Positions 4,111-37,419 of a DNA stretch of 37,660 bases are shown here, one piece after another (position 1 is the stretch's first letter; each line of letters begins with the position of its first letter). The stretch is from an uncultured Candidatus Saccharibacteria bacterium (GTDB taxonomy: Bacteria > Patescibacteriota > Minisyncoccia > JAHIHE01 > JAGLIN01), in assembly GCA_964412905.1 (NCBI GenBank), contig CAYPQL010000005.1:1-37660 (forward strand), in the 5' to 3' direction. The notes beneath the pieces were generated by a model. That model was not told the origin of the DNA, did no database searches, and saw only the letters and a program-made list of their open reading frames with translations. A program made the translations under genes and the position numbers.

Positions 4111-4187
4111 ATCCCCAAAGAATCCGACAATTCCGCGTTCCTTTTTTAGACAGCCTATTCGCGGTAATGTAATTCATTTTTAAAAAG

Positions 4188-4221
4188 TAGTGTCTTTTCT
4201 ACGGCCGTAGAAAAGACACTA
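4188..4221. repeat. 34-bp perfect palindrome, copy 1
   Basis: TAGTGTCTTTTCTACGG|CCGTAGAAAAGACACTA, identical to 4837-4870. Confidence 0.95.
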
Positions 4222-4308
4222 TGCTTATTCTGTAAATAGATGTATAATTAAAATAGACATGTAATCAAAACCATAAAGCTTAATCAAAATCATTAATCAT
4301 TAATCATT

Positions 4309-4839
4309 ATGAAATTGCCAATCACTGAAAATTTTTTGCTGGATGTTTATAATCACATTGAAAAATTAGATGAAACTTTTAGCCTATTTATCCCCCGAAC
4401 AATGAAAGAAGCTTGCTATCCCGATCTTTATGAATTGAAGCAACAGCACAAAAGAAGAAAGACGAAACAAGAATTCAGCCAGTTGGTCTATTATTTAAAG
4501 AAAAAAGGATATATTAAAATTAAAAATCTAGAGCAGAATAAAGGAGTTATTTTAACGAAAAAAGGAGAAGAGAAGGTTCTAAGAATAAAATTTAAAATAA
4601 GGAAAAAAGAAGAAAGATCGGATAAAAAATGGCAAATGATAATTTTTGATATTCCCGAAAAGAAAAGACGCCTGAGAGATTTATTGCGGGACAATCTTTG
4701 CCTTTTGGAATACAGAATGCTCCAACAAAGCATCTGGGTCTGCCCTTATGATGTTCAAAAAGAAACAGAATTTATTCTAAGAAAACATTCTCTTGACCCA
4801 TATGTAAAATTGTTCCTGATAGAAGAAATAGAAATATAG
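4309..4839 (+). CDS. PaaX-like protein: winged-HTH-like N-terminus plus Cas2/VapD-like ferredoxin-fold domain
   Basis: LVYYLKKKGYI...LTKKG (wHTH wing), then WQMIIFDIPEKKRRLRD...L...YRMLQQSIW, the FDIPE / LQxSVW signature shared by the PaaX central domain and Cas2. Confidence 0.75.
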   Translation: MKLPITENFLLDVYNHIEKLDETFSLFIPRTMKEACYPDLYELKQQHKRRKTKQEFSQLVYYLKKKGYIKIKNLEQNKGVILTKKGEEKVLRIKFKIRKKEERSDKKWQMIIFDIPEKKRRLRDLLRDNLCLLEYRMLQQSIWVCPYDVQKETEFILRKHSLDPYVKLFLIEEIEI

Positions 4840-4875
4840 TGTCTTTTCTACGGCCGTAGAAAAGACACTATATTT
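4832..4875. repeat. 44-bp perfect palindrome, copy 2 (contains the 34-bp core and the stop codon of the preceding gene)
   Basis: AAATATAGTGTCTTTTCTACGG|CCGTAGAAAAGACACTATATTT; the TAG stop lies at 4837-4839. Confidence 0.95.
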
Positions 4876-8766: not shown

Positions 8767-9528
8767 ATGTTTGAGATTTTATTTTTTTGGCTGATAATAA
8801 CCGCGGGGTTTATTTTATTGGCCAGCATCAAGCAAATTAATGAATATGAAAGAGGAGTGAAGTTTCAACTCGGCAAGTACATCAGCATTATGGAACCGGG
8901 CTGGAGAATTGTTGTTCCTGTTTTTCAATCATATCAGAAAGTTGATATCAGAGTAAAAGTGGTTGATGTTCCCGATCAAGACGCGATTACGAAAGACAAT
9001 GTTTCCGTAAATGTCAATGCTGTTCTTTATTATAAAGTTGCCGATGCCGAATCTGCTATTATCAAGGTGGAATATTTTGACTATGCAGTTTCTCAGCTTG
9101 CGCAAACCACAATGAGAGATGTTGTCGGCGAGGTGACGCTGGACGAATTGCTTTCCAAGAGAGATACAATATCGCAGAGAATTCAGGAAATCGTTGATAA
9201 AGCGACAGATCCATGGGGAATAAAAATTGTTTCTGTTGATTTGAAGCACATTGAACTTCCCGAGAATATGAAAAGAACTATAGCAAAACAAGCTGAAGCC
9301 GAGAGAGAAAAGAGGGCGGTTATAATCAAAGCCGAGGGAGAAGTCGCAGCAGCGGATAATATGGCAAAAGCCGCTGGAATTCTGGCAAGCTCTTCAGGCG
9401 CCCTTCATCTTCGAACTCTGCAGTCTATAAACGATATAAGTTCCGATCAATCCAATACAGTTATCTTTGCGGTTCCTTTGGAAATTTTAAGGGCGTTTGA
9501 AACAATGAACAATAGATCCAACAAATAA
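8767..9528 (+). CDS. SPFH / band 7 / stomatin-like membrane protein
   Basis: N-terminal TM helix; EYERGV, ITKDNVSV, AQTTMR, WGIKI and KQAEAEREKRA. Confidence 0.92.
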   Translation: MFEILFFWLIITAGFILLASIKQINEYERGVKFQLGKYISIMEPGWRIVVPVFQSYQKVDIRVKVVDVPDQDAITKDNVSVNVNAVLYYKVADAESAIIKVEYFDYAVSQLAQTTMRDVVGEVTLDELLSKRDTISQRIQEIVDKATDPWGIKIVSVDLKHIELPENMKRTIAKQAEAEREKRAVIIKAEGEVAAADNMAKAAGILASSSGALHLRTLQSINDISSDQSNTVIFAVPLEILRAFETMNNRSNK

Positions 9529-9535
9529 AAATAAC

Positions 9536-9576
9536 AAGCAAGATCAAACAAAGGCTTTGGTCTTGCTTTATTTTTA
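9536..9576 (+). terminator. Terminator after mreB-SPFH
   Basis: AAGCAAGATCAAA / TTTGGTCTTGCTT stem followed by TATTTTT. Confidence 0.6.
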
Positions 9577-9708
9577 TGAGTGTGATATAAAGAATAGGCG
9601 AATAAGCATTTAAACATATAAACATAATCACATTTTAACAAGTTTTTTAATTGTTTTTTGGGAATGTTGAAATGTTTATATGTTAAAATGCTAATATGAT
9701 TATTGTGG

Positions 9709-9781
9709 GGGGCGTTAGCTCAGTAGGTAGAGCAGCAGCCTTTTAAGCTGAGGGTCACAGGTTCGATCCCTGTACGCCCCA
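9709..9781 (+). tRNA. tRNA-Lys (anticodon UUU); CCA not encoded
   Basis: Acceptor stem GGGGCGT/ACGCCCC+A, D arm GCTC..GAGC, anticodon loop CTTTTAA, T arm ACAGG TTCGATC CCTGT. Confidence 0.95.
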
Positions 9782-14772: not shown

Positions 14773-14928
14773 TAAAATACGTGAGATTTGGCATTTGTTC
14801 CTCAGTATCGTTGGAATTTATGTCTTGAAATTTTAAAAAGAAACGTTGCCTCATCTATTTTATTGTCAAAATTATTTAATAAGAGACTTTGATGTGTTGA
14901 AAAAATATTAACTTGCTTTAGCAACCGC

Positions 14929-14968
14929 GAGATTGCTTCGTCGCCCTGATGGTCTCCTCGCAATGACA
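14929..14968 (-). repeat. TGTCAT-family hairpin arm (TGCGAG subtype), solo
   Basis: Reverse complement reads TGTCATTGCGAGGAG...GCGACGAAGCAATCTC. Confidence 0.9.
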
Positions 14969-15106
14969 ATTTTTTTACAATAGCAAATTAAATAACAACA
15001 AACCCGTTCTGTCATTGCGAGGAGTATCAACGACGAAGCAATCTCAGGCTCAAGAAAACAAATCAGCCTTGCGGTTATTCGCGAATAATCAATCTTAAAA
15101 TCATCC

Positions 15107-15397
15107 ATGAAATCAAAGCAATATTATTTTTATATAACGATCAACAATTCAAACACAGTTACCTATGCCGGCGTTACTAATGATTTGAATAGGCGAGTTT
15201 ATGAGCATAAAAATAAACTGATTAAAGGATTTACTTTTAAATATAACATTACTAAGCTTGTTCATTACGAAGTTTATAATAATATAATTGACGCTATTGC
15301 TAGAGAAAAGCAAATAAAAGGCGGTTCAAGAAAAAAGAAAATTGATTTAATTAAAAAAGAAAATCCAGAATTCAGAGATTTGTCACTGGAATGGTAA
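15107..15397 (+). CDS. Small stand-alone GIY-YIG nuclease (UPF0213-like)
   Basis: YFY...TYAGVTNDLNRRVYEHK...KLVHYE...AIAREKQIK..SRKKKIDLI...NPEFRDL. Confidence 0.9.
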   Translation: MKSKQYYFYITINNSNTVTYAGVTNDLNRRVYEHKNKLIKGFTFKYNITKLVHYEVYNNIIDAIAREKQIKGGSRKKKIDLIKKENPEFRDLSLEW

Positions 15398-15409
15398 TGT
15401 GAGAGATTG

Positions 15410-15440
15410 TCCGCCCAAGGCGGATCTGCCTAGTGCATGA
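15410..15440 (+). repeat. 31-nt double-hairpin insertion element
   Basis: TCCGCCCAAGGCGGA-TCTGCCTAGTGCATGA interrupts GAGATTG|CTTCGTCG, which is intact at 14929. Confidence 0.85.
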
Positions 15441-15536
15441 CTTCGTCGCTTTGATAAGCTCCTCGCGATGACAATTTCTTACGACAACAAATCAAAAAAT
15501 TATTTCCAAAATTAAAAACCATAAAATTCCAAAACT

Positions 15537-17114
15537 ATGCCAAAATATGAACCGGTAATCGGGATGGAGGTGCATATGGAACTGAAGACGAGGTCAAAGA
15601 TGTTTTGCTCGTGCGCGAATAATCCCGATGAAGCGCAGCCGAATAAAAATGTTTGTCCGATTTGCATGGGGCATCCGGGGACGCTTCCGGTTGCGAACAA
15701 AAAAGCGATAGAATATACGATTAAAACCGCGCTGGCTTTGAATTGCCAGATCGCGGAGCATTCCAAATTTGACCGTAAAAACTATTTTTATCCCGACCTT
15801 CCTAAAGGCTATCAGATTAGTCAATATGATATGCCGTTGAGTAAAAATGGCTATCTTGAAATTTATATGCCGGAAGATAAAGAACTAAAAAAATCCCAAA
15901 TCCCAAATCCCAAATCCCAAACAAACCCCAAATTACAAATTACAAATTACAAATTACAAGCTACTAAAAAAATAAACATAACCAGAATTCATTTGGAAGA
16001 AGACACAGGAAAGCTTATTCATCCTGCTGGCGCGGATTATTCTTTAGTTGATTTGAATCGCGCGGGAACGCCGCTTATGGAATTGGTGACGGAGCCGGAA
16101 ATAAAATCTTCGGAAGAGGCGAAGGAATTTTGCAAACAGCTTCAGTTGATTGTAAAATGCCTTGGAGTTTCGGACGCGGATATGGAAAAAGGGCATATGA
16201 GATGCGAGGCGAACATCAGCATAAAGCCCGTCGGTCAAAAAGAACTTGGGACAAAAGTAGAAGTTAAAAATCTGAATTCTTTCAGAGCGGTTGAGCGATC
16301 AATTGAATATGAAATCAAAAGACAGGCTGAAGTTTTGGACGATGGCGGAGAAATTATTCAGGAGACGCGCGGCTGGAACGCGGATAAGCAAGAGACATAT
16401 TCGCAGAGAAAAAAAGAGTCGGCGCATGACTATCGCTATTTTCCCGAGCCCGACTTGCCGCCGCTGGATTTAACTAAAAAGGCGGGAATGTTTGACATAG
16501 AAAAAATAAAAGAGAGTATTCCCGAATTGCCTTTACTCAAAAAATATCGTTTTATAAATCAATATAAATTATCAGAGGAGAACGCGCGGATATTTTCCGA
16601 AGACAAAGAGTTGGCGAATTATTTTGAACAAATCGTGTCGGAATTGCGAGCTTGGGTTTTGGCGAAAGGAATTGATGGAAATCGCTTAGATAAGCTCACA
16701 AAGCTTGCGGCAAATTATATTTTGACCGAGCTTCAGAGATTGCTTTATGTTGAAAATAACGCGGTATCATGCTGTAAAATTACCGCTGAAAATTTCGCTG
16801 AGTTTATAACGCTTATTGACGAAGGAAAAATTTCCAGTTCCGGCGCGCAAACAATGCTGGCTGAAATGTATAAAACAGGAGGAGATCCGTCAAATATCCT
16901 TGATGAAAAAGGGCTGGCGCAGGTGAGCGATGAAAGCGAGATTGAAAAAATTATTGGCGAGGTTATAAAAAACAACCCCAAGTCAGTCGGGGATTATCAA
17001 AATGGCAAAGATGCGGCGCTAAAATATTTAATCGGGCAAACGATGAAAGAAAGCAAAGGAAAGGCGAACCCGAAAATGGCGGAGGATATATTGAAAAAAA
17101 AGCTGAAATTATAA
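15537..17114 (+). CDS. gatB: Asp/Glu-tRNA amidotransferase subunit B
   Basis: IGMEVH, FDRKNYFYPDLPKGYQISQ, HLEED, NRAGTPLMELVTEP, YRYFPEPDL and GKANP. Confidence 0.97.
   Translation: MPKYEPVIGMEVHMELKTRSKMFCSCANNPDEAQPNKNVCPICMGHPGTLPVANKKAIEYTIKTALALNCQIAEHSKFDRKNYFYPDLPKGYQISQYDMPLSKNGYLEIYMPEDKELKKSQIPNPKSQTNPKLQITNYKLQATKKINITRIHLEEDTGKLIHPAGADYSLVDLNRAGTPLMELVTEPEIKSSEEAKEFCKQLQLIVKCLGVSDADMEKGHMRCEANISIKPVGQKELGTKVEVKNLNSFRAVERSIEYEIKRQAEVLDDGGEIIQETRGWNADKQETYSQRKKESAHDYRYFPEPDLPPLDLTKKAGMFDIEKIKESIPELPLLKKYRFINQYKLSEENARIFSEDKELANYFEQIVSELRAWVLAKGIDGNRLDKLTKLAANYILTELQRLLYVENNAVSCCKITAENFAEFITLIDEGKISSSGAQTMLAEMYKTGGDPSNILDEKGLAQVSDESEIEKIIGEVIKNNPKSVGDYQNGKDAALKYLIGQTMKESKGKANPKMAEDILKKKLKL
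15891..15957. repeat. In-frame heptamer tandem repeats within gatB
   Basis: (AAATCCC)x4-AAAC-AAACCCC-(AAATTAC)x4, encoding KSQIPNPKSQTNPKLQITNYKLQ. Confidence 0.95.
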
Positions 17115-17198
17115 TTTTAGGTCAAATAAACAAACAATAATAAAGTTTGGAAATTGTAAATTAGAAATTAAAAATTAGAAATTAAAAATTTCTATCCT

Positions 17199-18456: not shown

Positions 18457-18541
18457 TGTCATTTCGAGCATCAGCGAGAAATCTATAAACTTTAGATATT
18501 TCTATAATTTTTAGATTTCTCGCGAGGCGCTCGAAATGACA
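18457..18541 (-). repeat. TGTCAT-family inverted doublet (TTCGA subtype)
   Basis: TGTCATTTCGAGC..GAGAAATCT-N28-AGATTTCTC..GCTCGAAATGACA. The spacer is a near reverse complement of the spacers at 24711, 25120 and 28601. Confidence 0.95.
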
Positions 18542-24710: not shown

Positions 24711-24796
24711 TGTCATTTCGAACGCCTCGTGAGAAATCTAAGAGTTATAGAAATATCTAAAGTTTATAGATTTCTCGCTATTCGCTCGAAATGACA
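24711..24796 (+). repeat. TGTCAT-family inverted doublet (TTCGA subtype)
   Basis: TGTCATTTCGAAC..GAGAAATCT-N28-AGATTTCTC..TCGAAATGACA. Confidence 0.95.
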
Positions 24797-25119: not shown

Positions 25120-25213
25120 TGTCATTTCGAACGCCTCGTGAGAAATCTAAAAACTATAGAAATATCTAAGGTTTATAGATCTCTCAATCGCTGATGCTCA
25201 TTTCGAGATGACA
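25120..25213 (+). repeat. TGTCAT-family inverted doublet (TTCGA subtype)
   Basis: Left arm identical to 24711; right arm is the exact reverse complement of the left arm at 37307. Confidence 0.95.
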
Positions 25214-27110: not shown

Positions 27111-27216
27111 TGTCATTCTGAATTTATTTCAGAATCTATCGCATGCTATATTTAGCCTAAAATAAGCAAATATAACCTTAGCAGCAAGAAGATCCTGAAA
27201 CGAGTTCAGGATGACA
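27111..27216 (+). repeat. TGTCAT-family inverted doublet (CTGAA subtype), no insert
   Basis: TGTCATTCTGAATTTATTTCAGAATCT ... AGATCCTGAAACGAGTTCAGGATGACA. Confidence 0.95.
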
Positions 27217-28130: not shown

Positions 28131-28169
28131 AAAATAATTTAATATAAGGAATTTCAATATAAACATTAT

Positions 28170-28218
28170 AACTAATTCCAAATTCCAAATTACTAATTAC
28201 TAATTACAAATTACAAAT
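28170..28218. repeat. Heptamer tandem array before rpsS
   Basis: AATTCCA / AATTACT / AATTACA units, same family as the gatB insertion. Confidence 0.8.
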
Positions 28219-28600: not shown

Positions 28601-28686
28601 TGTCATTTCGAGCGTGTCGCGAGAAATCTAAATATTATAGAAATATCTGAAGTTTATAGATTTCTCGCCTACGGCTCGAAATGACA
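28601..28686 (+). repeat. TGTCAT-family inverted doublet (TTCGA subtype)
   Basis: TGTCATTTCGAGCGTGTCGCGAGAAATCT-N28-AGATTTCTCG..GCTCGAAATGACA. Confidence 0.95.
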
Positions 28687-31320: not shown

Positions 31321-31456
31321 TGTCATTCTGAACTTGTCAGCCTGTGGCTGATCTGCCAGAGGCATGATTTCAGAATCTACTATATACTACATTTAGCTTA
31401 ATAAGCAAATATAATCCTATTTATACGAAAGATTCTGAAATGAATTCAGGATGACA
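31321..31456 (+). repeat. TGTCAT-family doublet (CTGAA subtype) with a 31-nt double-hairpin insert at 31337-31367
   Basis: TGTCATTCTGAACTTG[TCAGCCTGTGGCTGA-TCTGCCAGAGGCATGA]TTTCAGAATCT ... TTCAGGATGACA. Confidence 0.95.
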
Positions 31457-31858: not shown

Positions 31859-31994
31859 TGTCATTCTGAACTTGTCAGCCTGTGGCTGATCTGCCAGAGG
31901 CATGATTTCAGAATCTACTGTATGCTGCATCTAGCTTAAAATAAGCAAACAAAACCTTGAAGCAAGAAGATCCTAAAATGAATTCAGGATGACA
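31859..31994 (+). repeat. TGTCAT-family doublet (CTGAA subtype) with the same insert at 31875-31905
   Basis: The first 61 nt are identical to 31321-31381. Confidence 0.95.
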
Positions 31995-33338: not shown

Positions 33339-33345
33339 GATCATT

Positions 33346-33468
33346 TTAACATATTAACATATAAACATGTTAATATGTTAATGAATTCATTTTTGAGATT
33401 TTGGTAAAGTCATATTAACATATTAGCGTATAAAATGTTAAAATGTTAAAATGTTAAAATGTTAAAAC
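33346..33468. repeat. Octamer tandem arrays (TTAACATA / AAAATGTT)
   Basis: AAAATGTT x4 just before rplF, with complementary units upstream. Confidence 0.8.
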
Positions 33469-33477
33469 GATATTCAT

Positions 33478-34029
33478 ATGAGCAAAATAGGAAAACAACC
33501 AATAATTATGCCGTCGGGAATCACTCTTTCTGTTGATAAAAATAATCAGGTTTTCGTGAAAGGCCCGAAGGGAGAGCTTTTTGTCAAAATTGATCCGAAA
33601 GTATTTGTTGAAGTTAAGGACGGGAAAGTTATTGTTTCTCTGAAAAACAGAACAAGAAAAAATTATGCCGTTTGGGGACTTTTTAGAATGTTGATTTTTA
33701 ATATGATTGAAGGGGTCGGAAAGGGCTTTGAAAAAAAACTTGAAATACAGGGGATTGGATATAAAGCAATCCAAAAAGGAAAAGATTTGGAACTGGCTTT
33801 GGGGTTTTCTCACCCGGTTCCATTTAAAGCTCCGGCGGGGATAGAATTCAAGGTGGAAAAAAATATAATTATCATAACCGGATTTGACAAGCAACTAGTG
33901 GGGCAAGTCGCCGCGGATATCCGAAGCAAAAAAAGGCCTGAACCGTACAAAGGGAAGGGGATAAGATATGTCGGGGAACATGTAAGAAGAAAATCCGGAA
34001 AGAAAGTCGCCGGAACAACGGAAAAGTAA
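33478..34029 (+). CDS. rplF: 50S ribosomal protein L6
   Basis: KGPKGEL, LGFSHP and PEPYKGKGIRY. Confidence 0.97.
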   Translation: MSKIGKQPIIMPSGITLSVDKNNQVFVKGPKGELFVKIDPKVFVEVKDGKVIVSLKNRTRKNYAVWGLFRMLIFNMIEGVGKGFEKKLEIQGIGYKAIQKGKDLELALGFSHPVPFKAPAGIEFKVEKNIIIITGFDKQLVGQVAADIRSKKRPEPYKGKGIRYVGEHVRRKSGKKVAGTTEK

Positions 34030-35184: not shown

Positions 35185-35275
35185 ATAAATATCAAGATAT
35201 TGGATATTAGGATATTGGATATTAAGAAATTTAAAATGTTAGTATGTTAAAATGTTTATATGTTAAAATGATCCT

Positions 35276-35707
35276 ATGCAATTTCACCAATTAAAACCTA
35301 GCAAGAGAAAAGAGAAGAAGAAAATCGGGCGCGGGGGAGCTCATGGAACTACCGCTACTCGCGGAACAAAAGGGCAGAAGGCGAGATCGGGGAGTTATAA
35401 AGGCCCTAGTTTTGAAGGAACAAAAGTCCCGCTTTTTCGAAGAACTCCGAAGTTAAGAGGATTTAAAAGTATTTATGAAAAAAGTAACACAGTCAATCTT
35501 TCTGTTTTGGAAAAGAATTTTCAAGACGGGGATGTCATAACCGCCAGAGCTTTATTGAACAAAGGATTGGTCAGCAAGATAAAGCCGAATGTCAAAATTC
35601 TCGGCGACGGGGAACTGAAAAAGAAAATTATCGTTGAAGGCTGCTTGGTTTCCAAAACCGCGGAAGAAAAAATCAAGAAAGCCGGCGGGGAGATTAGGGT
35701 TATATAA
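35276..35707 (+). CDS. rplO: 50S ribosomal protein L15
   Basis: RGTKGQKARSG, PKLRGF, VKILGDG and IKKAGG. Confidence 0.96.
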   Translation: MQFHQLKPSKRKEKKKIGRGGAHGTTATRGTKGQKARSGSYKGPSFEGTKVPLFRRTPKLRGFKSIYEKSNTVNLSVLEKNFQDGDVITARALLNKGLVSKIKPNVKILGDGELKKKIIVEGCLVSKTAEEKIKKAGGEIRVI

Positions 35708-35740: not shown

Positions 35741-35932
35741 TGTCATTCCCGCACTGAAATAAATTCAGCATAAACTCCGGCGGGAATCTAGGAGAAGTCT
35801 CATCTAATATTAATTTTACAATAAAAGTCTTGAAAACAAATTTACGGTAATACTCTGCGATATTTAATAGTCATAGTGTTATTCTAAATACGAGGATATT
35901 TCACCCGGATTCTCTTTTTCAAGGGAATGACA
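35741..35932 (+). repeat. TGTCAT-family doublet (TCCC subtype) with a nested hairpin in the left arm
   Basis: TGTCATTCCCGC..GCGGGAATCT (35741-35789) ... GGATTCTC..AGGGAATGACA (35907-35932). Confidence 0.85.
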
Positions 35933-37306: not shown

Positions 37307-37419
37307 TGTCATCTCGAAATGAGCATCAGCGATTGAGAGATCTAAAAGCTATGGGTTAAATCAATTACCCTACTGTCCAATATTATTTACAGATTTCTCG
37401 CGACACGCTCGAAATGACA
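37307..37419 (-). repeat. TGTCAT-family inverted doublet (TTCGA subtype) with a different spacer
   Basis: The arms are exact reverse complements of the 25120 right arm and the 28601 left arm. Confidence 0.95.

Follow-up and report, generated by a model that had tools for sequence, protein, structure and literature searches.

Introduction

Dispersed hairpin repeats in bacterial intergenic space are known from the REP/RAYT (REPIN) systems, in which a small HUH Y1 transposase gene (PF01797) is flanked by two inverted copies of a hairpin repeat that is scattered through the genome mostly as inverted doublets. RAYT genes are single-copy and vertically inherited, and REP sequences carry a conserved GTAG terminus. 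A second class of relationship is that between an autonomous insertion sequence and its MITEs, in which gene-less internal-deletion copies multiply alongside a gene-bearing parent that encodes a DDE, HUH, serine or tyrosine recombinase. The IS200/IS605 family also has hairpin ends, makes no target duplication and likely uses single-stranded DNA as substrate, but its left and right ends are unlike each other and it inserts next to a specific tetra- or pentanucleotide. No IS family in ISfinder is known to use a GIY-YIG nuclease. GIY-YIG enzymes are instead classic homing endonucleases, and the domain is listed among the homing-endonuclease types (PMC5718144). Free-standing and intron-encoded examples such as I-TevI and the T4 Seg proteins are about 200-250 aa long with a C-terminal DNA-binding domain, live in phages and introns, and have no terminal repeats or MITEs. 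GIY-YIG enzymes hydrolyse DNA and are not known to carry out strand transfer. A further branch comprises the structure-selective nucleases Slx1, YhbQ and YazA (UPF0213), which are treated as one family and of which Slx1 has a C-terminal zinc-finger domain and needs Slx4 (PMC7017083).

Here we analyse a 37,660-nt stretch (the window; contig CAYPQL010000005.1, positions 1 to 37,660, assembly GCA_964412905.1) from a groundwater Candidatus Saccharibacteria genome of 1.28 Mb that is 98% complete. A first-pass annotation of the sequence had proposed that a small GIY-YIG gene enclosed by inverted TGTCAT arms drives a REPIN-like family of dispersed doublets, and that each arm subtype may have its own nuclease paralogue. 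Our literature searches, which could not reach subscription journals and supplements, found no paper that links a bacterial GIY-YIG gene to REP, MITE or dispersed repeats or that prints the arm sequence, and no link between the Slx1/YhbQ/YazA family and repeats or mobility.

Results

Anatomy of the gene-bearing unit

The arrangement described in the first-pass annotation is confirmed. The ORF at 15107-15397 (+) encodes 96 aa and lies between a left arm, B, at 15010-15045 (+), which reads TGTCATTGCGAGGAG...CGACGAAGCAATCTC, and a right arm, C, at 15403-15473 (-), which ends CTCCTCGCGATGACA. A third arm, A, lies at 14929-14968 (-). Repeat analysis of 14880-15520 aligned B against C over 15 nt at 93% complementarity and A against B in two 15-nt blocks at 100%, while arm A is 83% identical to arm C, including 7 nt of flank. 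Arm B is laid out as TGTC, an outer stem ATTGC/GCAAT, tandem G.A steps, a variable inner stem with an ATCA loop, and then ATCTC. Arm C (CGC/TGC subtype) is longer because it carries a 31-nt two-hairpin insert at 15410-15440, between GAGATTG and CTTCGTCG (the insert is followed by CTTCG). Many gene-less doublets of the same subtype elsewhere in the genome carry the same insert, arms without it read GAGATTGCTTCG, and a similar insert sits in the TCT arms at 31321-31377 and 31859-31915. Arm A is of the TGC subtype and lies 41 nt from arm B with the two TGTCAT ends facing each other. No partner arm lies within 200 nt upstream of it, and it may be the surviving end of a decayed second element that points leftwards. 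The stretch 14896-14919 is 71% complementary to the gene start at 15115-15138, although this is weak evidence. The leader between arm B and the start codon (15046-15106, +) holds a degenerate second copy of a gene-start-like stretch at 15049-15065, and another such remnant lies just outside the right arm at 15478-15504.

The encoded protein belongs to the GIY-YIG superfamily (Pfam PF01541, E 3.2e-13, 50.2 bits against a cut-off of 22.6, residues 5-78 on model positions 1-76 of 78), and the three other small paralogues in the genome also match. Sequence searches of solved structures returned 1zg2 (1.6e-8) and 1ywl (6.2e-7), which places the protein in the UPF0213/YhbQ/Slx1-like branch. The AF2 model has a mean pLDDT of 93.9 and the element order E-E-H-H-E-H-H (strand/helix). 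Foldseek ranks 1zg2 of UPF0213 first (E 5.2e-4), followed at ranks 2-11 by Slx1 chains (E 0.03-0.15, probability 0.96-1.00), including Slx1 bound to 5'-flap and branched DNA, and then by the UvrC N-terminal domain 1yd6. In an alignment of 63 sequences Y9, Y20, R30, H34, E67 and N86 are invariant and G22 is at least 90% conserved, which covers the Tyr of GIY, the Tyr-x-Gly of YIG, and the Arg, Glu and Asn that form the catalytic positions of the superfamily. The NCBIfam group I intron endonuclease model scores 16.7-25.1 bits against a cut-off of 56 (TIGR01453, 16.7 bits against 56.05), PHROGs gave no hit, and PADLOC returned 0 defence families. The only Rfam hit in the window is a tRNA at 9709-9781, so no arm or doublet reaches the gathering score of any Rfam model.

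Gene-less doublets in the window and the genome

The pattern TGTCATNNCGAG, with up to 1 mismatch, occurs 13 times in the window, against an expectation of 1.15 and a maximum of 4 in 100 shuffles. Exactly nine gene-less TGTCAT...ATGACA doublets are present, as the first-pass annotation had counted, and its geometry of TGTCAT-hairpin-ATCT, spacer, AGAT-hairpin-ATGACA is correct. Doublets of TTC/TTC subtype lie at 18457-18541, 24711-24796 and 28601-28686. The doublet at 25120-25213 is TTC/CTC, the same unlike pair of arms as the GIY-YIG element on contig C37 of this genome, and that at 37307-37419 is CTC/TTC. Doublets of TCT/CCT subtype lie at 27111-27216, 31321-31456 and 31859-31994, the latter two with a nested mini-insert in the left arm, and one of TCC (TCCCGC) subtype lies at 35741-35932. 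The earlier statement that the TGC arms around the gene differ from those of the nine empty doublets is therefore also right. The TCT/CCT arms form fully Watson-Crick hairpins, in which G-A pairs with T-C.

The genome as a whole holds 292 arms. Of 116 consecutive TGTCAT>...<ATGACA pairs, 109 span 200 nt or less, 2 span about 203 nt, and 4 span 351-800 nt. Three of those four (462, 464 and 471 nt) are the only true long pairs, and each encloses one of the four small GIY-YIG paralogues with a different arm subtype, whereas the fourth is two unrelated pieces. The four paralogues are only 46-47% identical to the window's copy and have different arm subtypes. The paralogue on contig C40 is not enclosed and lies between two elements whose outer ends face it. 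The doublets are extragenic, since only 7 of 111 lie inside ORFs of 150 aa or more although such ORFs cover 76% of the genome.

Where do the gene-less doublets come from? A global alignment of doublets to the element with cheap gaps scattered the gaps and was discarded in favour of local alignment of the spacers. Seven of the 12 TGC/TGC doublets, at seven different loci, have a roughly 60-nt spacer that places on 15105/15111-15130/15135 (ATG plus about 9 codons) and on 15379-15394/15399 (the last codons, about 6, plus the stop). All seven share the same junction, so they are amplified internal-deletion derivatives, which fits an autonomous parent with non-autonomous copies. This relation was shown for the TGC subtype only and not for the shorter TTC/CTC and TCT/CCT doublets. 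TGC doublets, which do have a resident gene, are no more alike (median nearest-neighbour identity 0.84) than the TCT/CCT/GCT family (0.86), which has 35 doublets and no cognate gene in this assembly.

The unit has discrete boundaries. Two copies in another genome, G190, are 96.85% identical over 381 nt, from CTGTCAT to ATGACAAA, with unrelated flanks. The nearest gene relatives (77-83% nucleotide identity), in genomes G226 and G201, sit at other loci, keep TGC arms and have a much shorter leader, and the aspS-gatB site is empty in genome G213. A doublet at 11807-11899 of contig C31 is missing from the paralogous region on contig C47. No nucleotide-exact empty site was obtained, and one metagenome scan with a 29-nt stretch of the gatB start found 0 stretches. 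Direct repeats of 2-8 nt at the two flanks are no more frequent than with shuffled partners (at k=4, for example, 3 observed against 2.39), so no target-site duplication was found and insertion cannot be read from the sequence. The flanks show only a weak AAWY|...|RWTT bias.

Structure of the arms

A test requiring a 5-bp stem was too permissive in this AT-rich genome, with 386 of 888 TGTCAT sites passing against 17-330 for control hexamers, and it was replaced by a test for the complement of the variable stem triplet. The triplet is matched by its complement in 227 of 279 sites in this genome (control 3.3), and in 101 of 127 arms in other phyla picked by position alone (control 9.9), with 13 different triplets. 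The inner stem keeps pairing through G-C to A-T changes. DNA folding energies of the G.A-type arms are no better than those of shuffles (z from -1.30 to +0.77 for five arms), and only the TCT arm stands out (27111-27216, z -4.06). The case for hairpins therefore rests on covariation. We rejected the idea that the arms are intrinsic terminators, since no T-run follows them and a scan of 14780-15560 found no terminator-like site. The same scan found no plus-strand promoter-like site; both counts were fewer than in shuffles, and the scan is in itself uninformative.

Association of gene and arms across phyla and genomes

Two outcomes had been named beforehand as counting against the interpretation, namely that small GIY-YIG genes are not enriched for flanking arms and that repeat-rich genomes lack the gene. 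Both were checked, and neither refuted the idea: flanking arms are strongly enriched, and repeat-rich genomes mostly carry the gene. Of 600 candidate stretches 574 were confirmed as relatives, and the best 80 come from at least 21 named phyla at 51-69% identity. Among these 80 an inward arm lies upstream in 46, downstream in 59, and on both sides in 39, and the two arms have the same stem triplet in 30 of those 39. The background of 89 arms in 183,551 nt of their own outer flanks predicts arms on both sides in about 0.4% of loci. A side effect of repeat-rich neighbourhoods was considered and rejected, because about 20 of the 80 loci, by our reading of the per-locus counts, have exactly two arms in about 3.3 kb and both flank the gene. 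On the gene tree the arm triplet changes 26 times, against 40.8 ± 1.7 when labels are shuffled (minimum 34), and phyla are interleaved, with 38 changes against a minimum possible of 20. Twelve of the 84 genes in the tree set have no arm within 250 nt.

Among 200 genomes of the phylum, 61 carry the strong class of the gene. The arm pattern has a median count of 18 in these 61, against 4 in the 65 without any hit, whereas medians for the reversed-pattern control are 5 and 4 (Mann-Whitney p = 3.7e-12). Three or more doublets occur in 22 of 61 genomes with the gene, against 6 of 139 others (odds ratio 12.5) and 1 of the 65 with no hit, and the control pattern scored 0 in every genome. Genomes in the sample are related to each other, so the p-values overstate the evidence. 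Of the 28 doublet-rich genomes, six lack the strong-class gene (G072, G084, G112, G153, G171 and G183), and G153 has 13 true doublets. Presence of Y1_Tnp (HUH) shows no link to doublets, at 13 of 88 against 15 of 112 genomes (odds ratio 1.12). Relatives of the gene are multi-copy, with 1-10 matches per genome and frequent in-frame stops among the listed matches, and only 7 relatives were found in the viral collection.

Discussion

The question is whether the nuclease drives the spread of the arms that enclose it. The reading that we favour, with moderate confidence, is that window 15010-15473 is a self-contained 464-bp mobile element. Each of its two inverted arms follows the scheme (T)GTC, an AT-xyz stem, internal G.A steps or Watson-Crick pairs, a variable stem-loop, z'y'x'-AT and C(T/C), and between them lies the single gene for the 96-aa nuclease of YhbQ/Slx1 type. 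In this view the roughly 111 gene-less doublets are non-autonomous, MITE-like relatives. We hypothesize that the nuclease recognises the folded arm, either as a hairpin in single-stranded DNA or as a cruciform, and cuts at the base of the hairpin, next to the invariant GTCAT, at both ends of gene-bearing and gene-less copies of its cognate subtype. Host replication or repair would then join the copy at AT-rich extragenic sites without a target duplication. The analysis itself establishes the anatomy, the discrete boundaries, the deletion-derivative relation for the TGC subtype, the association of gene and arms within the genome, across genomes and across phyla, the stem covariation and the intact catalytic core. 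Nuclease activity, cleavage of the arms, its position, and every later step including excision and integration are inferred, and the joining step has no known enzyme.

The first-pass interpretation is thus partly supported. The rule that each subtype has its own paralogue holds for the TGC, TCC and TTC/CTC subtypes but fails for the TCT/CCT/GCT family, and this orphan family and the six doublet-rich genomes without the gene weaken a strict one-enzyme-per-subtype rule. The system behaves like a selfish transposon with MITEs, horizontally spread, rather than a domesticated REPIN system.

An alternative hypothesis is that the doublets are an independent repeat family spread by other means, and that the GIY-YIG gene is a free-standing homing-endonuclease gene that cuts empty doublets and is copied into them by recombinational repair using the arms as homology. 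The hydrolytic chemistry of these enzymes, the orphan doublets without a gene, the many homologous landing sites that dispersed arms of one subtype would offer, and the gene-start-like remnants at 15049-15065 and 15478-15504, which fit repeated recombination at this locus, are consistent with such a model. However, the seven doublets that carry both gene ends at one junction arose from a gene-bearing copy and multiplied afterwards, doublets are at background level in genomes without the gene, and no other candidate mobilising enzyme tracks them. Moreover, the protein has no DNA-binding extension of the kind that targets I-TevI and the Seg enzymes, relatives in the viral collection are few, and homing alone cannot place doublets at new loci with unrelated flanks. 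We consider this alternative unlikely, although it is the strongest of the rivals.

It is less likely still that the arms are extragenic structural or regulatory elements, for example in DNA topology, replication or mRNA ends, which a domesticated nuclease maintains for the benefit of the host. The extragenic location, the arm architecture conserved across phyla, retention in very small genomes and the resemblance in geometry to the genome's own RAYT-like gene, which is flanked by its own inverted hairpins, agree with this view. Copy number and decay, patchy distribution (61 of 200 genomes), interleaved phyla, closely related copies at non-syntenic sites and amplified deletion derivatives are all marks of a selfish element. 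Mobilisation of the arms by an HUH (RAYT/IS200-like) enzyme with the GIY-YIG gene as passenger is very improbable: although the genome has one Y1_Tnp gene (contig C10, 9169-9723, 26.1 bits against a cut-off of 23) and all six doublet-rich genomes without the strong class have a Y1_Tnp hit, that gene is flanked by a different hairpin, GGCTCCACTC...GAGTGGAGCC (13 motif hits, which we read as about 8 hairpins in the genome), and not by GTCAT arms, the Y1 genes examined in G171, G112, G183 and G072 have no GTCAT arms beside them, Y1_Tnp presence is unrelated to doublets, and 15 of the 28 doublet-rich genomes have the GIY-YIG gene and no Y1_Tnp.

A bolder reading, which remains possible but which we hold as somewhat less likely than not, is that these units are a new class of prokaryotic transposable element, and perhaps the smallest autonomous one at about 370-470 bp, whose only protein reads the shape of its own hairpin ends and whose clade-specific pairs of enzyme and arm spread across most bacterial phyla. 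They would be the source of the very common GTCAT-TGCGAG...GAAGCAATC type of intergenic repeat, would give the large, uncharacterised UPF0213/YhbQ-like family a first biological role, and would show that a purely hydrolytic nuclease can drive transposition. If the mobile-element reading holds, the GIY-YIG superfamily would join the short list of enzymes that move DNA in prokaryotes, and an extremely small autonomous element would be defined. It would explain a repeat family that litters intergenic regions in many phyla and regularly produces spurious short ORFs in annotation, give a testable function to small stand-alone GIY-YIG proteins related to YhbQ, YazA and Slx1, and offer natural sets of enzyme and hairpin pairs (TGC, TCT, TTC and TCC subtypes) for studying how a 96-residue protein recognises DNA shape. 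It would also show that genome-reduced groundwater bacteria carry active selfish DNA, with about 111 doublets and four genes counted in this genome.

Comparison with described systems

The locus shares with REP/RAYT systems a small nuclease gene between inverted copies of a hairpin that is dispersed extragenically, mostly as inverted doublets, without target duplication, and the arm and the enzyme clade track each other; the same genome carries a small canonical example. It differs in that the enzyme is a GIY-YIG nuclease and not an HUH Y1 transposase, the conserved terminus is GTCAT and not GTAG, the genes are multi-copy, often decayed, patchy and mixed across phyla, and the doublets include deletion derivatives of the gene-bearing unit. 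As with an autonomous insertion sequence and its MITEs, the unit is discrete, bounded by inverted ends and extragenic, and its internal-deletion derivatives amplified to many loci. However, no DDE, HUH, serine or tyrosine recombinase is present, the only protein is a predicted 96-aa hydrolytic nuclease, no target-site duplication was found, and the ends are structured hairpins with covarying stems rather than plain inverted repeats in an autonomous unit of only about 370-470 bp. The catalytic domain and a selfish, horizontally moving gene are shared with GIY-YIG homing endonucleases, although here the protein is the domain alone, scores far below the cut-off of the intron endonuclease model and is bounded by arms. 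Slx1, YhbQ and YazA are the closest matches by sequence and by predicted fold, and a nuclease that reads DNA shape fits arms that are conserved in structure but not in sequence, but this protein is the bare nuclease domain, without the zinc finger of Slx1. Finally, the hairpin ends and absence of target duplication recall IS200/IS605, whose HUH enzyme, unlike ends and specific target contrast with the GIY-YIG gene, inverted arms and weakly biased flanks seen here.

The enclosed gene and its arms

The genome (G000) is 1.28 Mb in 89 contigs with 36.6% G+C and an estimated completeness of 98%; the window is its contig C5, and the sequencing runs that contain it are groundwater metagenomes. The ORF at 15107-15397 (+) encodes 96 aa and matches the Pfam GIY-YIG domain with an E value of 3.2e-13 and 50.2 bits against a cut-off of 22.6. 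The gene lies between arm B (15010-15045, starting TGTCATTGCGAGGAG) and arm C (15403-15473, ending CTCCTCGCGATGACA), which are 93% complementary over their terminal 15 nt. Arm A (14929-14968) is a third copy positioned 41 nt left of arm B such that the two TGTCAT ends face each other, and it matches arm B over two 15-nt blocks at 100% complementarity. A search for TGTCATNNCGAG with up to one mismatch returned 13 occurrences in the window against 1.15 expected, and the window holds exactly nine gene-less TGTCAT...ATGACA doublets. The first-pass annotation had described a GIY-YIG gene enclosed by inverted TGTCAT arms, a third arm and nine gene-less doublets of the same geometry, and this description is correct in every particular. 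Its interpretation as a REPIN-like system driven by a GIY-YIG enzyme, with perhaps one nuclease paralogue for each arm subtype, is partly supported by the results presented here.

Arm C is long because it carries a 31-nt two-hairpin insert at 15410-15440; arms of the same subtype that lack the insert read GAGATTGCTTCG at that point. A mini-insert of roughly 31-34 nt (TCCGCC..GGCGG-ATCT-GCC..GGC-ATGA) is nested inside arms of two different subtypes, since it is also observed inside the arms at 31321-31377 and 31859-31915, and many TGC doublets elsewhere in the genome carry it in one or both arms. The insert sits between G and C with no duplicated base, and together with its flanking bases it reads GTC...ATGAC, like a miniature doublet. 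Short stretches resembling the start of the GIY-YIG gene lie left of arm A (14896-14919, inverted, 71% complementary to 15115-15138), in the leader of the element (15049-15065) and just outside arm C (15478-15504) (81-82% identical), which suggests remains of older copies or recombination at this locus.

Other repeats in the window were also noted. AT-rich arrays with an 8-nt period (units like AAAATGTT / TATATGTT) recur in several intergenic regions, including 9652-9708, 33339-33479 and 35216-35280, and some are inverted copies of each other. Runs with a 7-nt period (CAAATTA / AAATTAC) occur at 15922-15973, 17150-17187 and 28165-28216, the first of which lies inside the gatB reading frame, where it encodes a low-complexity stretch (..NPKSQTNPKLQITNYKLQ..). 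A 40-nt perfect-palindrome-like repeat (AAAAGTAGTGTCTTTTCTACGGCCGTAGAAAAGACACTAT) occurs twice, at 4183-4222 and 4836-4875, 613 nt apart; the copies are 95% complementary and 91% identical, and the repeat is unrelated to the GTCAT arms.

Arms and paralogues across the genome

A regular expression for the arm start identifies 292 arms in the genome, of which the main subtypes, named by the three variable stem bases, are TTC, CCT, TCT, TGC, CTC and TCC. Pairing each forward arm with the next reverse arm gives 116 pairs, such that 109 span 200 nt or less, 2 span about 203 nt, 4 span 351-800 nt and 1 spans more than 2 kb. Of the four mid-sized pairs, three measure 462, 464 and 471 nt and each encloses a small GIY-YIG gene (on contigs C37, C5 and C13), while the fourth, on C47, is two unrelated pieces. 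The genome has four small GIY-YIG paralogues plus one match in a long ORF that is probably UvrC. The other three small paralogues are only 46-47% identical to the window's copy and keep the catalytic positions. Each enclosed gene has its own arm subtype: C5 has TGC arms, C13 has a perfect TCCCGC hairpin and C37 has an unlike TTC + CTC pair. The fourth gene, on C40, is not enclosed and lies between two TCC-type elements whose outer ends face it.

Some gene-less doublets carry remnants of the gene

The spacers of the 12 TGC/TGC doublets were aligned locally to the interior of the window's element. For seven of them (C8:6277, C12:18105, C15:808, C19:20526, C20:12231, C25:18038 and C33:10308), the first part of the spacer places on 15105/15111-15130/15135, which corresponds to the ATG and about nine codons, and the rest places on 15379-15394/15399, which corresponds to the last codons and the stop. 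The individual scores are 14-21 against shuffle means of 9.1-11.1, and three of the seven (C15, C19 and C25) do not exceed the best of their shuffles; what carries weight is that all seven place identically. When printed side by side, they share one junction, ...TTTACAT|TTTATCGCTGGAATGG.... Therefore, one internal deletion produced a gene-less copy, and that copy then spread to at least seven loci. The TTC/CTC doublets share 9-13 nt beyond each arm with the C37 element, although gene remnants could not be shown in those shorter families.

A discrete unit at non-equivalent sites

In genome G190, two gene-bearing copies on different contigs are 96.85% identical over 381 nt, with the identity starting at CTGTCAT and stopping at ATGACAAA and with unrelated flanks. 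In the window's own family aspS and gatB are neighbors, and the stretch between them varies from 198 nt in genome G213, with no arm, to 1,349 nt here. The most similar GIY-YIG genes lie on other contigs than aspS-gatB and are again enclosed by TGC arms; they are two copies in genome G226 at 83% and 78% nucleotide identity and one in genome G201 at 77%. Within G000, a paralogous region on C47 lacks the doublet present at C31:11807-11899, although divergence blurs the exact junction, and one metagenome scan for strain variants found nothing. Doublets avoid genes, since only 7 of 111 lie inside ORFs of 150 aa or more, which cover 76% of the genome. No target-site duplication was found, and the flanks show only a weak symmetric bias, AAWY|TGTCAT...ATGACA|RWTT.

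Association of gene and arms across bacteria

A scan of one genome per species confirmed 574 of the first 600 candidate stretches as relatives. The 80 best are 51-69% identical and carry names from at least 21 phyla, including Chloroflexota, Cyanobacteriota, Bacteroidota, Pseudomonadota, Ignavibacteriota and Bacillota. We defined a strict arm as GTCAT, a triplet, G[AC] and, within 75 nt, the complement of the triplet followed by AT. By this definition, an inward-facing arm lies within 250 nt upstream in 46 of 80 loci, downstream in 59 of 80 and on both sides in 39 of 80, and the same triplet is present on both sides in 30 of those 39. The outer flanks of the same loci hold 89 arms in 183,551 nt, from which we calculate that arms on both sides are expected in about 0.4% of loci. 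By our reading of the individual loci, about 20 have exactly two arms in about 3.3 kb, and both flank the gene. Genomes that are rich in the gene but poor in the first arm pattern used (G190, G056, G093, G085 and G175) use other arm subtypes, which are perfect hairpins such as GTCAT-CCCGGCCTTGAGCCGGG-ATCC and still enclose the gene. More distant GIY-YIG genes (E about 1e-19) in genome G072 (G072:C58:1-935 and G072:C80:12731-13785) are embedded in arrays of unrelated repeated hairpins, for example CTTCGACAGGCTCAGTGACCGAAG, and pairing of small GIY-YIG genes with repeats may therefore extend beyond the GTCAT arms. Only 7 relatives were found in the viral collection, 3 of them with arms nearby.

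To test co-occurrence at the genome level, 200 other genomes of the phylum were sampled, one of which (G154) is flagged as unpublished and contributes one row to the tallies. Based on their best GIY-YIG match, 61 have the strong class (E of 1e-25 or better), 74 have only weaker GIY-YIG matches and 65 have none. The median number of TGTCATNNYGAR hits is 18 in the strong class, 5 in the weak class and 4 in genomes with none, compared with reversed-control medians of 5, 4.5 and 4, and 30 or more hits are observed in 26, 3 and 1 genomes, respectively. A full-doublet pattern, for which the control scored zero in every genome, is present three or more times in 22 of 61 strong genomes, 5 of 74 weak genomes and 1 of 65 with none, and the odds ratio is 12.5. 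These genomes are related to one another, so that p-values for such comparisons are too optimistic. The HUH family Y1_Tnp served as a control and shows no link, since 13 of 88 genomes with it have three or more doublets against 15 of 112 without it. G000 itself has one RAYT/IS200-like Y1_Tnp gene (C10:9128-9760; ORF 9169-9723, with an HLH motif), which is flanked by its own inverted GGCTCCACTC...GAGTGGAGCC hairpins; 13 motif hits were listed, which we read as about eight such hairpins in the genome. The genome thus holds a small classical REP/RAYT-like set next to the much larger GIY-YIG set.

Not all results fit this simple picture. Six of the 28 doublet-rich genomes lack the strong class (G072, G084, G112, G153, G171 and G183), three of which are one genus, and G153 is 97% complete in 5 contigs and has 13 clean doublets. 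The weak GIY-YIG genes inspected in G153, G112 and G002 have no arms. All six doublet-rich genomes that lack the strong class have a Y1_Tnp hit, against a base rate of 88 of 200, an observation for which we have no explanation; however, the Y1 genes inspected in four of them (G171, G112, G183 and G072) are not next to GTCAT arms. In G000, the TCT/CCT/GCT family has 35 doublets and no cognate gene. Moreover, sequence similarity does not track the presence of a resident gene, since the median nearest-neighbor identities are 0.86 for the orphan TCT/CCT/GCT family, 0.84 for TGC, which has a gene, and 0.95 for TTC/CTC, the largest family (54 doublets), whose gene is on C37.

Structure of the arms

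The three bases after GTCAT vary, and their complement follows. In G000, 227 of 279 sites chosen only as TGTCAT-NNN-GAR close with the complement plus ATC, whereas the figure is 3.3 with the triplet of another arm. Among 127 arms in other phyla, picked only as the innermost GTCAT or ATGAC beside a gene, 101 close against 9.9 in the control, and they use 13 different triplets. Two classes are observed: in one, G-A faces G-A (TTC, CTC, TCC and TGC, with TGC arms often having two such steps), and in the other, G-A pairs with T-C (TCT, CCT and GCT). Inside the G.A step, the first pair is G-C in 179, A-T in 45 and C-G in 14 of 253 arms from other phyla, and pairing continues for 2.19 pairs on average against 0.52 in shuffles. 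Thirty of the 127 arms contain GCGAAGC, which is an unusually stable DNA mini-hairpin and would favor a single-stranded DNA or cruciform form. However, nearest-neighbor DNA folding does not single out the G.A-type arms, with z from -1.30 to +0.77 for five arms, and only the TCT arm stands out, at z -4.06. No Rfam family matches.

The predicted nuclease

In 63 aligned sequences, Y9, Y20, R30, H34, E67 and N86 are invariant. The AlphaFold model is confident, with a mean pLDDT of 93.9, and a Foldseek search with it ranks the UPF0213 protein BH0048 first, followed by Slx1 chains, including complexes with 5'-flap and branched DNA, and then the UvrC N-terminal domain. A sequence search of solved structures identifies 1zg2 and 1ywl. 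Slx1, YhbQ and YazA are described as one family, and Slx1 has a C-terminal zinc-finger domain and needs Slx4 (PMC7017083), whereas the protein here is the bare nuclease domain. The NCBIfam group I intron endonuclease model scores far below its cut-off, and searches with PADLOC and PHROGs gave no match. On a poorly resolved tree of 84 proteins, the arm triplet changes 26 times, against 40.8 +/- 1.7 for shuffled labels (minimum 34), and a TGC clade, a TCT/CCT/GCT clade and a TTC clade are visible. Phylum labels change 38 times, where 20 is the minimum possible and 46 is the shuffled mean. Arms and gene therefore travel and diverge together, across host phyla.

A model for mobility

The analysis establishes a discrete unit that is bounded by structured inverted arms, holds one intact nuclease gene, has amplified deletion derivatives, lies at extragenic sites without target duplication, and shows co-distribution and co-divergence of gene and arms; everything beyond this, including nuclease activity, cleavage of the arms and all subsequent steps, is inferred. 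The closest characterized relative of the nuclease cuts DNA by shape. For this reason, we hypothesize that the nuclease binds the extruded or single-stranded hairpin and cuts at its base, beside the invariant GTC/AT, and that it would do this at both ends of cognate copies, with or without the gene. Host replication or repair would then complete the movement. No strand-transfer chemistry is known to us for GIY-YIG enzymes. The nested 31-nt insert, which sits exactly between G and C inside another arm with no duplicated base, is consistent with insertion at or near such structures. The main alternative hypothesis is that the gene homes into pre-existing doublets. We consider this unlikely, but it cannot be set aside because of the orphan families and because homing is the chemistry for which these enzymes are known.

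Comparison with known systems

Full-text literature searches, which did not extend to subscription journals and supplements and so cannot exclude a prior description, found no paper that links bacterial GIY-YIG genes with REP, MITE or dispersed repeats, or that prints the arm motifs. One review lists GIY-YIG only among homing-endonuclease types and as part of Penelope-like elements (PMC5718144). An autonomous element with non-autonomous doublets is a familiar arrangement; what differs here is that it would be driven by a nuclease superfamily not known in that role, and there is a real chance that it represents a new class of prokaryotic transposon. In geometry and logic, the system is closest to REP/RAYT and to a transposon with MITEs, but by its enzyme it belongs to neither, and it is also not a homing endonuclease gene of the I-TevI/Seg type.
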